Translations under genes and position numbers: made by a program
The notes under the pieces: model-generated
What the model saw: only the letters and a program-made list of their open reading frames with translations
The model's database searches: none
What the model was told of the DNA's origin: nothing
Shown here: positions 48,601 to 56,241 of the stretch, piece after piece
Numbering within the stretch: the stretch's first letter is position 1
How the letters are laid out: the number at the start of each line of letters is the position of its first letter
Origin: an uncultured Chloroflexia bacterium
Lineage (GTDB): Bacteria > Chloroflexota > Limnocylindria > Limnocylindrales > CSP1-4
Length of the DNA: 64,000 bases
Reading direction: 5' to 3'
NCBI GenBank assembly: GCA_963713975.1
Contig: OY970218.1
Span: 1,344,001 to 1,408,000, forward strand

Positions 48601-50781
48601 TCACGCCTCGCGCACGGCCTTCACGAACAGCCCGGCAACACCCGCACCCACCGAGATCACGCCCGCCGCGAAGATCACGGGCCCTGGCCCGAGGACGGTG
48701 ATGAATAGGCCGCCCAGCGCCATCGCCAGCGACATCCCGCCGAACACCAGGGCGAACCGGAGGCTGACCACGCGCCCCATCAGCTCCGGCGGCGTGCGCT
48801 CCTGGAACAGCGTCTGGCTGGGGATCACGAAGGCCATGTTGGCGATGCCAAGGCCAAAGAGGAGTCCCAGCACCAGCGGGAGGCTGTCGGTGAGTCCCAG
48901 CACCATCGTGCCCAGGCCGAAGGCGATGTACGCCCCGATGATCAGCCTGCCCTTCCGGGCTCGGCCGGCCACTGCGCCCAGGGCGAAGCCGCCGATGAGG
49001 CTGCCGATGCCGATCGCCGTCTCCATGAAGGCGTACGTGGCCCGGTACGCGTCGCCGTCGCCGGGCGTGATCTCGCGGGCCAGGATCAGGCTGGCGACGG
49101 TGAGCACACCGAGCGAGAACTGCCCCGCGGTGCCCTGCAGGGTGTTGGCCAGCAGGACGGTCTCGTGGCGCAGGAACGCCCAGCCGGCCCTGAGGTCCTG
49201 GACGACGGTCGTGTGCGGCTCCTCGTACCTGGCGCCGCCGCCGTCCGGTGCCTCGATGTCGCCGGCATCCTCGGGGCCCCGGGCACGGCGGGCCAGCGGC
49301 GGCACGACCATCGTGCCCAGCAACACCGCGGAGGCGAGGTAGGTCACCGCGTCGAGCCAGAACGCAAGGAACAGCGAGGACTGCAGGAACGCAACGAACA
49401 GGCCGGCGATCGGGTAGTTGATGACGTCGGCAAGTGTCTCGCCCACCCACATGGCCGAGTTCGCGGCGAGCAGATCCTCCTCGGGAACGATGCGCGGCAG
49501 CACGGCCTGGCGGGCCGGCCGGAAGAAGATCGAGACCGTGGTGATCAGGAACACGATCGGGTAGGCGAGCCACACGTTCGTGAGCACCGCCACGGGAAGG
49601 AGCAGGACGCCCGCCGCTCGCAGGATGTCGGACACGATGAGGACCTGCTTCTGGTCCCAGCGGTCCACGTAGGCACCCGCGATCGGCGACAGGAGCAGGT
49701 TGGGGACCATGCCCATGAAGAAGGTCAATGCGACGGCCAGCGGCGAGTTCGTCAGCTCGTAGACAAACGCCGCCAGGGCGATCTGATTTACCCGGTCGCC
49801 GAACAGGCTGATGACCTGCCCGGCCCACAATGCCGAGAAGTTGGGGTTGAGCGCCAGACGCACGTACGGGTGCTGGCGCAGGTGCTCGAGGGCTGCCGGT
49901 CGCCGCCTCCCGATCGGGAAGGTCCCAAGGCCTTCCGCGGCCAGCGCGCCGCCGAAGCCCGTCTGGCCCGGGGCGGCCATCGCCGCCACGCGATCGTCGC
50001 CGGGTTCATCCGCCAGCGGGGCGAGGGCGGGTGAGGCCAGGCCCATGCCCCGCGCACCCATCATCAGCGGTCGCTCCAGGGCGATCGCGTCATCGAGCGA
50101 CGGCGTCAGGCCCGTGCCGGACCGGATCGCGATGCCGTCCTTGTCCACCGGGGCCGGCGTCCCGGGCAGGCGGGCGGTTCCGGCGAATCCGAGGTAGCGG
50201 CCCGTCTTGGCCTCGTCCGACGCGCGTCGTGCCTCGGCGGGTGTCCGCAGCAGCGTCGCGAAGAGGAAGAACGCCAGGCCCGCGGTCAGGAAGATGTCGC
50301 CGATCGACGCCACGTTGCGGAAGGGCTCGAAGGGGATCGGGATGATGTCGCCCAGCGCGCCAAGCCGGAGCAGGAACTCAGTGCTAAGGGGACCCGACAG
50401 CTCGAAGTGGAGCACCGAGTCCAGCGGCGGCGTCAGCCCCGAGGCGGCGTAGGCCTCATCCCAGACCGGCATGTAGCCACCGTTGGACAGGATCGCGATC
50501 GCGTTCAGCGAGACCCCGATGAAGGCGAGAGCGAGACCTGGATACCAGCGGTTGCGCCACAGGGCGAACAGCAGCAGCCCGTAGGCCAGGCCCAGCAGGG
50601 GCGCCCGGAACGCGTCCACGACCTGCACCCCGTACCCGAGGGCGGCCTCCGTGGCGAACCGGATGATGACCGCGAGGAACAGCAGCGGCAGGTAGCGGAG
50701 CCGGATCAGCGCCAGGTTCTCGAGCCGGCCGCCAAGGAGCAGGCCTAGGACGAGCCCGAGCGCGATACCGCCGATCAGCAT
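48601..50781 (-). CDS. DUF5317 domain fused to MFS transporter (DHA3-like)
   Basis: N-terminal GGRL.NL, N...I..NGG.MPV, LGD.I, SIGD; C-terminal LWAGQVISLFGD, AGAYVDRWD, P.ELMGRV. Confidence 0.85.
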   Translation of the reverse strand: MLIGGIALGLVLGLLLGGRLENLALIRLRYLPLLFLAVIIRFATEAALGYGVQVVDAFRAPLLGLAYGLLLFALWRNRWYPGLALAFIGVSLNAIAILSNGGYMPVWDEAYAASGLTPPLDSVLHFELSGPLSTEFLLRLGALGDIIPIPFEPFRNVASIGDIFLTAGLAFFLFATLLRTPAEARRASDEAKTGRYLGFAGTARLPGTPAPVDKDGIAIRSGTGLTPSLDDAIALERPLMMGARGMGLASPALAPLADEPGDDRVAAMAAPGQTGFGGALAAEGLGTFPIGRRRPAALEHLRQHPYVRLALNPNFSALWAGQVISLFGDRVNQIALAAFVYELTNSPLAVALTFFMGMVPNLLLSPIAGAYVDRWDQKQVLIVSDILRAAGVLLLPVAVLTNVWLAYPIVFLITTVSIFFRPARQAVLPRIVPEEDLLAANSAMWVGETLADVINYPIAGLFVAFLQSSLFLAFWLDAVTYLASAVLLGTMVVPPLARRARGPEDAGDIEAPDGGGARYEEPHTTVVQDLRAGWAFLRHETVLLANTLQGTAGQFSLGVLTVASLILAREITPGDGDAYRATYAFMETAIGIGSLIGGFALGAVAGRARKGRLIIGAYIAFGLGTMVLGLTDSLPLVLGLLFGLGIANMAFVIPSQTLFQERTPPELMGRVVSLRFALVFGGMSLAMALGGLFITVLGPGPVIFAAGVISVGAGVAGLFVKAVREA

Positions 50782-50815
50782 CCGAGGATTGTGGGGCCCC
50801 CGGGGGCCCGCGTGC

Positions 50816-55700: not shown

Positions 55701-56241
55701 CGGGGTCGATCTCGCGACCGCTCGCGACCAGGTGGCGGATGAAGGTGAGCCAGTCCCGGTCATCCGCCTCCAGCCGGTACCAGGCCGTCATTCGCGTCGT
55801 CTGGACGGCCCAATCGGCGAGCAGCGTGGTCTTGCCGAAGCCGGCCTCCGCGACGATGAGGCCGAGGCGTCCCGCAGCCGCGCGGTCCAGCCACGAGTTG
55901 AGGCGCTCGCGCGACAGCGTGTCGTCGCGCGGCGGCGGGCAGTGGATCTTGACCGGCTGCACGGGCAGGGGATTCATCGGGAACCCGCCCGTGGTGCCGC
56001 CGAGCAGCACGGAAGCGGCCAAGCCCGGCCCGACGGCGACCAGCCCATGCCCGTTGCGTTCACCCCTCGCCCGCGGTGTTGGCCGGGGCCTGGGGGCCGG
56101 GCCCATGCCACCACTCGCCGGAGACGATACGGCAGCGCGATGTGGGGCCGGGGCGTGCTTCTGCACGGGTTGGACCTGGTGCGCGGTCTCGATGGGGTCG
56201 GGGAGGCGATCGCGGTCAGACCGCCGAGTGGTCGGGAGCAT
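52765..56241 (-). CDS. MalT-like STAND ATPase, TPR-like region, wHTH/BTAD transcriptional regulator (start may be 55977)
   Basis: KI..PP....L.RERL, AEAGFGKTTLL, FDDYH, TEGW, FHPL.REFL; C-terminal LGP...TRD...D.IWP...SLHQTIYYLRR, Y.G, BTAD. Confidence 0.88.
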   Translation of the reverse strand: MLPTTRRSDRDRLPDPIETAHQVQPVQKHAPAPHRAAVSSPASGGMGPAPRPRPTPRARGERNGHGLVAVGPGLAASVLLGGTTGGFPMNPLPVQPVKIHCPPPRDDTLSRERLNSWLDRAAAGRLGLIVAEAGFGKTTLLADWAVQTTRMTAWYRLEADDRDWLTFIRHLVASGREIDPGFAPQTLDLLGSLGPGGPTQHDLTVSIAREMAEFGTGSSHGLTLIFDDYHVVDGCPDTDPIVRALLDRTAPGYSVVIATRSTPAFPLGRIRARGGVLAIEGRDLCFDLDETSRLFRDAYRQPLDAQVAADLCDRTEGWAALLTLVRTSIEEHNDPRVLVAHLDASRGDLYDFLAEEVLATLPPELQHFLTRVAVLTAVDVNMAVLVDERPADDIAVSIRESERLGLLSRPDRESPHRFHPLVREFLVARLTAEIGEAAVRDLHQALGTALENSAWLPATWHYRAAGDMNSAARTLDAAIPSIIASGGFELARQFLDGSAGPPDRPGVLILRSRLELERGHLARAIELAQLGSQVGEGTSLASLGLLNLTAILARHGFDEQSIKLATRAMEGDLAPAERMVAEASLAVWSTQQEGSLAAVADYLVGLAQIQDAAGHVRYAGITRLNLAVILLWMGRSRDAADVAGTAELSLGASPTSPERVAAIAVRIAAQLQLGATEPLDRMAALIDEASTPVARDEAAIEAARLLGDYGSLERAESAAARVGQAALSTGYLGAWAVATGTIALRRGEPVIAAERVALAGGALQDAAGKFRVCLLRARISLATRSRLADGQIAELTRIAAAQGSRLEAVIADLLRGLQDGRPDGAVARLMPDEDHVLSMLADEVCRSLPELDTESRLRVTREATLRPDRWITALRMVYQADPLAARLLADIGNEHDASALRAAAASRKWLRPIAAEITHRLAPRVLIHDLGPVTVQIGVENHVRTLRRKVMGLLCFVASRPGMAATRDEALDAIWPDLGPDTAVNSLHQTIYYLRRVFEPTYREGTSAGYVEFDGDVLSLHPALVDSQSRKCQRLVDVTCSDKEDALDQLVATYRGRYALDFTYEDWATSYRENLHASVLASVESGIRRATAEGNIDRATRLAQAMLAVDPGADGIELALLKAYKAGDRHAAAAEQYAHYAAYIRGELGADPPRFDDI

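Follow-up and report, generated by a model that had tools for sequence, protein, structure and literature searches.

A 29-residue micro-protein gene associated with DUF5317 and a MASE9-HD-GYP protein, probably under c-di-GMP-II riboswitch control, in Chloroflexota

The single-pass membrane proteins MgrB, AcrZ, and KdpF, each of about 30 residues, are encoded beside or co-regulated with a membrane partner (PhoQ for MgrB, AcrB for AcrZ). Short open reading frames (ORFs) also occur in peptide-pheromone cassettes (AgrD/AgrB, SHP/Rgg, PrgQ/PrgX, and PapR/PlcR), and in the microcin C system the 7-aa peptide MccA is exported by the MFS pump MccC. Riboswitch control of genes for cyclic di-GMP (c-di-GMP) turnover is a known kind of regulation, from the early GEMM work, and the c-di-GMP-II class is mostly clostridial. 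Here we describe positions 48601 to 56241 of a 64,000-nt window (the whole stretch of DNA that was analyzed) from contig OY970218.1 of an uncultured Chloroflexia bacterium. On the minus strand of this region, a probable c-di-GMP-II riboswitch and two micro-ORFs of 10 and 29 aa lie between a gene for a MalT-like regulator and the genes for a predicted MASE9-HD-GYP phosphodiesterase and a DUF5317-MFS fusion. We regard the locus as real and probably as an undescribed membrane module under riboswitch control of a known type. The riboswitch class, HD-GYP, MASE9, MFS, and the MalT-like and BTAD domains are all known; the micro-protein family, its partnership with DUF5317 and MASE9-HD-GYP, the 10-aa ORF, and this riboswitch in Chloroflexota could not be found in print by literature search.

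The 29-aa product (ORF2, hereafter the micro-protein) is similar to MgrB, AcrZ, and KdpF in size, single-pass build, and gene placement. Its family differs from them by a LAGGA[SP] motif, a short exposed tail, and a DUF5317 partner, and the contact between partners is a proposal here. Like the pheromone cassettes, the locus combines a short precursor-like ORF with a ∼190-aa polytopic membrane protein and a large regulator in the cytoplasm, and the functional part would again be the C-terminal tail. In contrast to those cassettes, the tail is not diversifying within the class and the proposed output is a cyclic-dinucleotide enzyme; Pfam and NCBIfam scans found no AgrB, Eep, PptAB, or RRNPP/TPR receptor homology in the module proteins. 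A peptide of at most 10 residues encoded beside an MFS exporter recalls microcin C, but the window locus is without modification enzymes, and export of ORF1 is a possibility by analogy only. The leader resembles c-di-GMP-II ON switches of the terminator type in its full-length match, its conserved positions, and the overlap of the terminator with the aptamer 3′ end, and differs from them by its Chloroflexota host and its control of micro-ORFs and a c-di-GMP phosphodiesterase. A full-text literature search returned no paper pairing "c-di-GMP-II" with "Chloroflexi," and none of the papers listed on c-di-GMP-II riboswitches and HD-GYP has this arrangement, as judged by title and abstract.

Our favored reading, which we hold with somewhat better than even confidence, is that the locus is a c-di-GMP-induced operon carrying a membrane signaling module. 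The window has a G+C content of ∼70%, and the minus strand from 48601 to 56241 holds three long ORFs and a 515-nt gap. Within this gap the order is promoter, stem-loop, aptamer, terminator, Shine-Dalgarno (SD) sequence with ORF1, ORF2, an 89-nt spacer, and the HD-GYP start. An earlier note on this DNA had described five co-oriented minus-strand genes, all of which lie where it placed them and keep their order in relatives (Chloroflexota, Limnocylindria-type metagenome-assembled genomes [MAGs]); it overlooked the c-di-GMP-II riboswitch and the terminator directly upstream of the small ORFs. The features are as follows.

52765 to 56241, minus strand: MalT-like/BTAD regulator, 1158-aa ORF (Pfam, NCBIfam, and PDB matches)
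52666 to 52695, minus strand: sigma-70-like promoter TTGACC-18-TATAGT (10 of 12 consensus matches)
52635 to 52657, minus strand: 5′ stem-loop GCACTAGTAC-N4-GTACTGTGC at the leader start (alignment)
52543 to 52626, minus strand: c-di-GMP-II riboswitch aptamer (RF01786 match)
52519 to 52557, minus strand: intrinsic terminator AACCGACC-loop-GGTCGGTT with a U-rich tail (terminator scan and folding)
52455 to 52487, minus strand: ORF1, 10 aa, MAPIQVFKGW followed by TAA, with a GTG start (SD AAGGAGG at 52501 to 52495)
52339 to 52428, minus strand: ORF2, 29-aa micro-protein MKDRLMRALVALGAVAAMALAGGASLKGF followed by TAG (codon-level selection and conservation)
52250 to 52338, minus strand: structured 89-nt spacer between ORF2 and the HD-GYP gene (single-sequence folding; conserved GGGCTAGAGTCC block)
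50816 to 52249, minus strand: MASE9-HD-GYP membrane phosphodiesterase, 477 aa (HD_5 and PDB matches; MASE9 matches of orthologs)
48601 to 50781, minus strand: DUF5317-MFS fusion (Pfam and NCBIfam matches)

A one-genome-per-species scan yielded 563 tblastn-confirmed HD-GYP relatives, from which 80 loci were kept, nearly all labeled as Chloroflexota, Chloroflexia, or Limnocylindrales MAGs. By tblastn, DUF5317 lies downstream in 77 of the 80 and a regulator homolog (C-terminus) upstream in 68, and 11 of the 12 loci that miss the regulator have less than 520 nt of upstream DNA. ORF2 is present in 73/80 loci, with 29 codons in nearly all of them. The aptamer core motif stands upstream of the HD-GYP gene in 72/80, at a distance of 263 to 307 nt from its start in 70, and the loci without the motif mostly have little upstream DNA. 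In 72 of 77 loci, DUF5317 and MFS are fused in a single reading frame. In a wider sample of 201 Chloroflexota genomes, DUF5317 was found in 64; it occurs in all genomes of the window's two class-level families (7/7 and 12/12) as frames of ∼620 to 750 aa and elsewhere in the phylum as a stand-alone gene of ∼190 to 260 aa.

The aptamer in the window matches RF01786 over its full length (positions 1 to 84) with 51.1 bits (gathering score, 53.5) and an E value of 5.2e-9. Aligned to the model, it keeps every upper-case consensus position; the pseudoknot partners GGGCAC/GUGC are present, and the core UGGGCAC loop and the GUGCAACCG 3′ segment are kept. Orthologous aptamers score above the gathering threshold in 15 of the 18 loci scanned (53.6 to 71.1 bits). 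In an alignment of 70 leaders, the promoter boxes TATTGACCGG and CCTATAGTCCGG are nearly invariant, as are the aptamer, the terminator, and the SD sequence of ORF1. The conserved 3′ segment of the aptamer, CAACCGACC, doubles as the 5′ arm of the terminator. The minimum free energy (MFE) fold of the leader forms the AACCGACC...GGTCGGTT terminator, and in a fold of the aptamer by itself these AACCGACC bases are paired in P1. Since these bases are shared by P1 and the terminator, the ligand-bound fold and the terminator would be mutually exclusive, as expected of an ON switch. The stem-loop that opens the leader has a conserved core, AGTAC-N4-GTACT, and an outer stem in which both strands differ between clades (GCAC/GTGC versus CTTCC/GGAAG). 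Most relatives have the stem-loop heptamer CTAGTAC a second time, at the stop of ORF2 (TTCTAGTAC; window region, 52300 to 52345), and in the window's clade a self-complementary insert, CCTGAG..CTCAG, splits CTAG from TAC. The recurrence of the heptamer suggests a role at the RNA level.

Two further c-di-GMP-II-like aptamers were located in the same genome, at G000:C1:856536-856620 (+) (L081; 53.6 bits) and G000:C1:818241-818325 (+) (L083; 37.3 bits). Both the loop and the 3′ segment differ from those of the window (..GGTCGCC.. with ..GGCGAGACCGACC), a two-sided change that looks, from the sequence, like a compensated pseudoknot. One of the two stands before a 185-aa protein with a signal-like N-terminus and the other before an ORF that resembles, by eye, an S-adenosylmethionine methyltransferase.

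The codon usage of ORF2 argues for a functional protein. In the last 9 codons, the G, G, A, and S positions are invariant or nearly so in the protein, and each of them is written with all four synonymous codons; for L, six codons occur (70/70 leaders). Conserved residues with free codon choice point to selection on the protein and not on the RNA. Origin of the small ORFs by chance is ruled out by this codon evidence. The predicted product consists of a basic N-terminus, ∼17 hydrophobic residues, the segment A-x-A-G-G-A-S, and a tail L-[RK]-G-F that is nearly invariant over 73 species-level loci. In the 3.6-Mb genome, ORF2 itself is the sole instance of an ORF2-like C-terminus. The earlier note had taken the 29-aa ORF as signal-peptide-like, and this description holds: ORF2 is present, is under protein-level selection, and carries A-x-A before GG. 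By inspection, R7 is near-invariant, and the sequence fits a Sec-type signal peptide with a predicted signal peptidase I site (basic n-region, h-region, and small residues at −3 and −1). Public protein sets include two of the five micro-protein copies that were looked up, one as "hypothetical protein" and one without a name.

The 10-aa ORF, also taken from the earlier note, proved to be conserved with its SD sequence and a K-G-aromatic end. An SD-led ORF1 ending in an aromatic residue and stop was picked in 68 of 70 leaders; two picks, in L001 and L061, are wrong frames, and inspection of these leaders revealed that both do carry a canonical ORF1. Among the 66 correct picks, K is found at −3 in all 66, and ORF1 ends in W (58 picks), F (6), or Y (2), with a correspondingly varied last codon (TGG, TTC, TTT, or TAC). 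ORF1 is 8 to 11 aa long with a variable middle, starts ∼30 nt past the terminator, and is 8 to 40 nt distant from ORF2. Exceptions are L016, which ends in KGWN, and L046, where ORF1 is expanded. The L046 ORF1 (upstream of the HD-GYP start at 1471) has 37 codons and ends in three tandem SSVTKGF copies, which could be a genuine repeat of the conserved end or an assembly artifact. ORF1 and ORF2 have a common end, [KR]-G-aromatic-stop, and ORF1 may represent a shortened duplicate of the micro-protein gene in which the K-G-W end remains important. The 66 correct ORF1 picks stop with TAG (59) or TAA (7), and the stops of ORF2 are TAG in 53, TGA in 12, and TAA in 5 of 70, with the counts coming from related loci and being non-independent; the long ORFs of the genome use ∼30% TAG and 68% TGA.

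The spacer at 52250 to 52338 folds with an MFE of −37 to −47 kcal/mol in 14 loci (single-sequence folds with no shuffled control). Long-range pairing between the end of ORF2 and the first HD-GYP codons was considered and rejected (mean of −15.1 kcal/mol versus −13.7 for shuffles; 74 loci). RNA-library contigs from three studies align on 52210 to 52631; most are 85 to 99% alike and hence come from relatives. A single RNA contig (52339 to 52549) bridges the terminator, ORF1, and ORF2; another single contig (52228 to 52487) runs from ORF1 to the HD-GYP start; and one joins 52210 to 52334 to 52409 to 52615 with other letters between. These contigs are a weak hint that the leader and the small ORFs are transcribed together in nature. 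The aptamer and terminator are covered more deeply than the ORFs, and several RNA contigs end near 52520/52549; since depth per contig cannot rank parts and loose contig ends occur, neither was counted as evidence of termination. The contigs leave the region above 52650 and below 52208 uncovered, and the sequencing runs each contain only 0.06 to 0.11 of the sampled words, too little to support a statement on habitat or strain.

The HD-GYP protein matches HD_5 with an E value of 1.1e-40 (139.5 bits), and its motifs, read directly, are intact (LLHDVGK and HHHEWYNGSGYP), in agreement with the earlier note's description of an intact HD-GYP domain in a multi-transmembrane protein. With the HD dyad and the HHExxDGxGYP-type motif in place, the protein is classified by sequence as a member of the HD-GYP phosphodiesterase family. 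Solved HD-GYP enzymes match overall at E values of 5.6e-29 to 5.5e-22, and among them are the cyclic GMP-AMP (cGAMP) phosphodiesterase 5z7c (5.6e-29), PmGH 4mcw (2.9e-25), and the PA4781-type 4r8z. The N-terminal membrane part is probably a MASE9 domain (PF20972), judged by way of its relatives: the window region itself gives an E value of 0.81 and 10 bits (cutoff, 24.3), and 27 of 31 orthologs match at E values of ≤1 (best, 5.6e-10). The same two-domain architecture is found in the MASE9-HD-GYP enzymes TM1467 of Thermotoga maritima and HdgA of Streptomyces venezuelae. The preprint that defined this domain proposes ligand binding within the membrane and reports that only one MASE9 member has been studied (bioRxiv 10.1101/2021.11.05.467447); its main text contains neither "DUF5317" nor "riboswitch," and its passages describing MASE9-HD-GYP name no small partner protein. 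A literature search combining HD-GYP, small membrane protein, and riboswitch returned no paper. The c-di-GMP network of the window's genome comprises 15 GGDEF, 4 EAL, and 2 HD_5 matches.

The DUF5317-MFS fusion described in the earlier note was recovered with strong matches to both halves. DUF5317 (PF17248) matches with an E value of 1.4e-25 and 90.5 bits (cutoff, 25) over profile positions 2 to 150 of 151, and MFS_1 matches with 4.1e-33 and 115.2 bits. The domain covers residues 26 to 173 and is followed by a linker of ∼130 residues and by MFS at residues ∼315 to 700. The nearest models of the MFS half are DHA3/Mef/EntS exporters; the TIGR00900 match (E value, 1.5e-61) scores 208.8 bits under a cutoff of 319.6 and does not assign the protein to that subfamily. 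In an AF2 model (pLDDT, 93), DUF5317 is folded into five long helices, of which helices 4 and 5 are separated by a small beta region. Its conserved residues are N77, N93, G102, M104, P105, D145, S159, G161, and D162, and all but N77, conserved phylum-wide, are predicted by the positive-inside rule to face outward together with the beta region. The motifs NGGxMP, GDIIPIP, and SxGD had raised the idea of an LspA-like or GxGD-like aspartyl peptidase, which was dropped after sequence and fold searches: the DUF5317 profile against PDB sequences gave one chance match (E value, 1.5), Foldseek of the model against PDB gave a best E value of 3 at TM scores of <0.3 with no peptidase, and the ESM Atlas gave no usable match. 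Kinship of DUF5317 with MASE9 was likewise rejected (hhalign probability, 0.2). Co-folding of DUF5317 with the 29-aa protein scored 0.31, 0.31, and 0.33 against a mark of 0.32, with controls at 0.00; a 29-residue partner lies below the calibrated range, and these scores do not count for or against binding. The family counts 4183 cluster representatives at E values of ≤0.001, Thermus thermophilus and Thermotoga maritima (control genomes) also carry DUF5317 and HD_5, and a full-text literature search found no paper mentioning DUF5317.

Beyond the window's class, 28 DUF5317 loci of other Chloroflexota families were retrieved, and the counts that follow are limited to the DNA fetched. HD-GYP stands beside DUF5317 in 16 of the 28, a regulator homolog in 12, and a micro-protein in 23, SD-led, 24 to 47 codons long, and in the same operon neighborhood. 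A strict regular expression for ORF2-like ends gave 0/28, an artifact of the pattern, and looser scans recovered the family; of the five loci without a micro-protein, two have hardly any upstream DNA. These micro-proteins combine a basic N-terminus with an uncharged stretch (17 residues for 13 of the 22 listed), the motif [GAS]-G-A-[DPSN], and a tail of 3 to 10 residues, often with K/R and W/F. The family motif is ..LAGGA[SP].. followed by a short tail that differs between families, and in most cases the micro-protein gene has a MASE9-HD-GYP gene, a MalT-like/BTAD regulator gene, or the two together in its vicinity. In two loci, L128 (∼1.1 kb away) and L129, the micro-protein gene lies 3′ of DUF5317. 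Five loci (L125, L126, L130, L132, and L136) hold the regulator, the micro-protein, and DUF5317 with no HD-GYP, and the genes downstream of this minimal cassette are unrelated, rpoD-like ones in L130 and L132 and ORFs without a Pfam match in L125 and L136. A c-di-AMP riboswitch (97.7 bits) at 10046 to 10182 (−) of L136, ∼3 kb from the cassette, is probably unrelated to it. In L133, L134, and L137, which are of one family, the order is micro-protein, HD-GYP, MFS, and DUF5317 as separate genes, which indicates that the fusion in the window's class joins genes that are adjacent elsewhere. In a distant family, L117 (8628 to 9141, −) carries a c-di-GMP-II-GAG variant aptamer (40.9 bits; gathering score, 40) with the same terminator overlap, then two identical 31-aa micro-protein genes, each with AGGAGG, then MASE9-HD-GYP and DUF5317. 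We know of no established ligand for this variant.

A tblastn search of plasmids returned one match, plasmid NZ_CP144220.1 (L142) of Natranaerobius thermophilus (Bacillota), where an ORF ending in ..LAGGASFTWGGGG and unannotated in RefSeq lies directly 5′ of HD-GYP and DUF5317. At 3341 to 5279 of this locus, HD-GYP and DUF5317 are each annotated as two overlapping or adjacent coding sequences, and the DUF5317 frame changes before SxGD; these splits are either frameshifts in the record or signs of decaying genes. On the evidence of this locus, the association of micro-protein, DUF5317, and HD-GYP is, as far as sequence can tell, older than the phylum. The earlier note had named the absence of a conserved small ORF beside DUF5317/HD-GYP homologs as a refutation of its idea. 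A micro-protein gene of like build was found beside DUF5317, HD-GYP, or both in 73/80 loci of the class, in 23/28 of other Chloroflexota, and on a plasmid of Bacillota, so the idea survives this test.

In the mechanism that we propose, binding of c-di-GMP would lock CAACCGACC into P1 and the pseudoknot, the terminator would be blocked, and the operon would be read through. The HD-GYP enzyme would then hydrolyze c-di-GMP and close the switch, giving a homeostatic negative feedback. The 29-aa protein would insert with its N-terminus inside and its C-terminus outside, which would bring LAGGAS and the short tail to the outer face of the membrane, the predicted side of the conserved Asn/Asp cluster in DUF5317. 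The micro-protein, DUF5317, and MASE9 may thus form a membrane module that sets the phosphodiesterase activity, with the MFS half exporting a small substrate. Within this reading we lean modestly toward the micro-protein as a stable subunit rather than a substrate cut by DUF5317. The constant 17-residue helix and the invariance of the tail over many species point to a subunit; A-x-A before GG, the variation of the tails between families, and the conserved Asp pair point to a substrate.

Several observations weigh against the c-di-GMP-induced operon. The aptamer of the window falls 2.4 bits short of the Rfam gathering score and is too uniform within the clade to show covariation, so that its identity leans on the Rfam model and not on clade covariation. 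The ON polarity, by which high c-di-GMP would induce its own phosphodiesterase, is deduced from base pairing only. No Rfam riboswitch was found before the module in 22 of the 23 other-family loci scanned, and there was no Rfam match at the Natranaerobius locus; this distribution suggests that the riboswitch is a lineage-specific add-on outside the core module. Among solved structures, the closest to the HD-GYP domain is that of a cGAMP-specific enzyme, which leaves c-di-GMP as the putative substrate. Contact of the micro-protein with DUF5317 or MASE9 is a proposal from gene arrangement and sequence, A-x-A before GG suits signal-peptidase cleavage as well as helix packing, and the RNA-library contigs may be DNA carry-over.

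The regulator gene upstream of the leader encodes AAA_16, BTAD (41.3 bits; cutoff, 22.1), and a Trans_reg_C match below its cutoff (23.2 versus 26.2 bits) in Pfam. Residues 96 to 479 match the MalT model NF003420 with an E value of 1.2e-50 and 172.5 bits, under its 537-bit cutoff, the protein matches MalT in PDB (8bob) with 5.6e-31, and its NOD aligns with MalT residues 4 to 381. Of the MalT/TPR/BTAD regulator named in the earlier note, the MalT-like N-terminal half and BTAD are borne out, and the TPR part is not, as no TPR model matched in the Pfam and NCBIfam scans. MalT ends in a LuxR-type helix-turn-helix (HTH), and in AfsR-type Streptomyces antibiotic regulatory proteins (SARPs) the DNA-binding part is N-terminal. 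SARPs pair an OmpR-type winged HTH with BTAD, and of these two domains BTAD is above its cutoff here and the OmpR-type match (Trans_reg_C) is weak. The order here, NOD-sensor-winged HTH-BTAD, differs from both, and with Trans_reg_C/BTAD at its C-terminus the protein falls outside the MalT family as defined by NOD, sensor, and LuxR-type HTH. The first ∼95 residues (55960 to 56241) are Pro/Arg/Gly rich and without a match. Because the MalT-like match starts at residue 96 and a Met is found at about residue 88, the annotated start is probably too far upstream. The locus is flanked by housekeeping genes (PCMT methyltransferase and DnaB).

The same genes could be read as a pheromone circuit, in which ORF2 is the precursor, DUF5317 is a new intramembrane protease cutting between LAG and GAS or between ALA and GG, the released tail of 6 to 8 residues, for which the earlier note gave GASLKGF as an example, is sensed by MASE9 and leads to c-di-GMP hydrolysis, and the MFS half may export ORF1 or the peptide. 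The build of a short signal peptide, with small residues before GG (A at −3 in 65/70 and at −1 in 68/70), is in keeping with this, and so is the conservation of LAGGA[SP] next to a tail that varies between families, a combination seen in processed peptides. Two Asp, two Asn, and a Ser of DUF5317 are conserved phylum-wide on its predicted outer face, the peptide gene stays beside DUF5317 even where HD-GYP is missing, and an exporter-type MFS is fused or adjacent. However, cleavage of the precursor by DUF5317, the step on which the earlier note had built its model, found no backing, as DUF5317 is related to no solved protease in sequence or fold. The near-invariance of the tail over 73 loci of many species sets it apart from pherotypes, the module contains neither a peptide transporter nor a modification enzyme nor a receptor of known type, and the constant 17-residue uncharged run (13/22 listed) suits a fixed transmembrane helix. 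We consider this circuit unlikely.

It is more doubtful still that the MalT-like STAND/BTAD regulator senses one or both peptides in the cytoplasm, as in RRNPP pairs or MalT and its inducer, with DUF5317 and MFS maturing and exporting them and HD-GYP as a co-regulated passenger. The minimal cassettes of regulator, micro-protein, and DUF5317 would fit such a scheme, as would the ∼450 unassigned residues that follow the MalT-type NOD where MalT has its sensor, and ORF1, having no signal sequence, would remain cytoplasmic. Yet neither TPR nor another peptide-binding model matched the regulator, the cassette is without an import system, the near-consensus operon promoter needs no activator, and 16 of the 28 other-family loci have no regulator homolog. 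Slightly less probable again is a purely cis-acting role of the small ORFs, whereby leader translation would couple read-through to HD-GYP translation or protect the transcript and the products would be functionless. The strong SD of ORF1 shortly past the terminator, the close spacing of the two ORFs, the strongly structured spacer before the HD-GYP start, and the overrepresentation of TAG stops (59/66 and 53/70, versus ∼30% in the long ORFs of the genome) are the features that such a role would explain. It would not explain the selection on ORF2 at the amino acid level or the presence of the family in riboswitch-free loci, with a different arrangement in L129 (after DUF5317), as two copies in L117, and in a second phylum, and duplexes between the ORF2 end and the HD-GYP start were no more stable than shuffled ones.

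The elements of the operon and of a peptide signal may also be combined into a c-di-GMP-gated peptide circuit, a tentative scheme that we think improbable. The riboswitch would gate the precursor, DUF5317 would represent a new family of intramembrane Asp/Asn hydrolases that trims the LAGGAS junction and frees the tail of 6 to 8 residues, the leaderless ORF1 peptide, with its shared K-G-aromatic end, would leave via MFS, and MASE9, the regulator, or both would read the signal. If true, a single loop would couple the level of a second messenger to a cue that is diffusible or lies in the envelope, and the core of micro-protein and DUF5317, being common to Chloroflexota and Bacillota, would be ancient.

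Taken as the c-di-GMP-induced operon that we favor, the locus places a c-di-GMP-II riboswitch in Chloroflexota, wired as an apparent negative feedback on its messenger. Genes of 10 and 29 aa under selection bear on the number of small genes that annotation overlooks, and Natranaerobius offers a cultured isolate carrying the module. The fixed partnership with a micro-protein of ∼30 aa and MASE9-HD-GYP gives DUF5317 a first functional context, and the locus in turn offers a candidate intramembrane partner for the MASE9 sensor.

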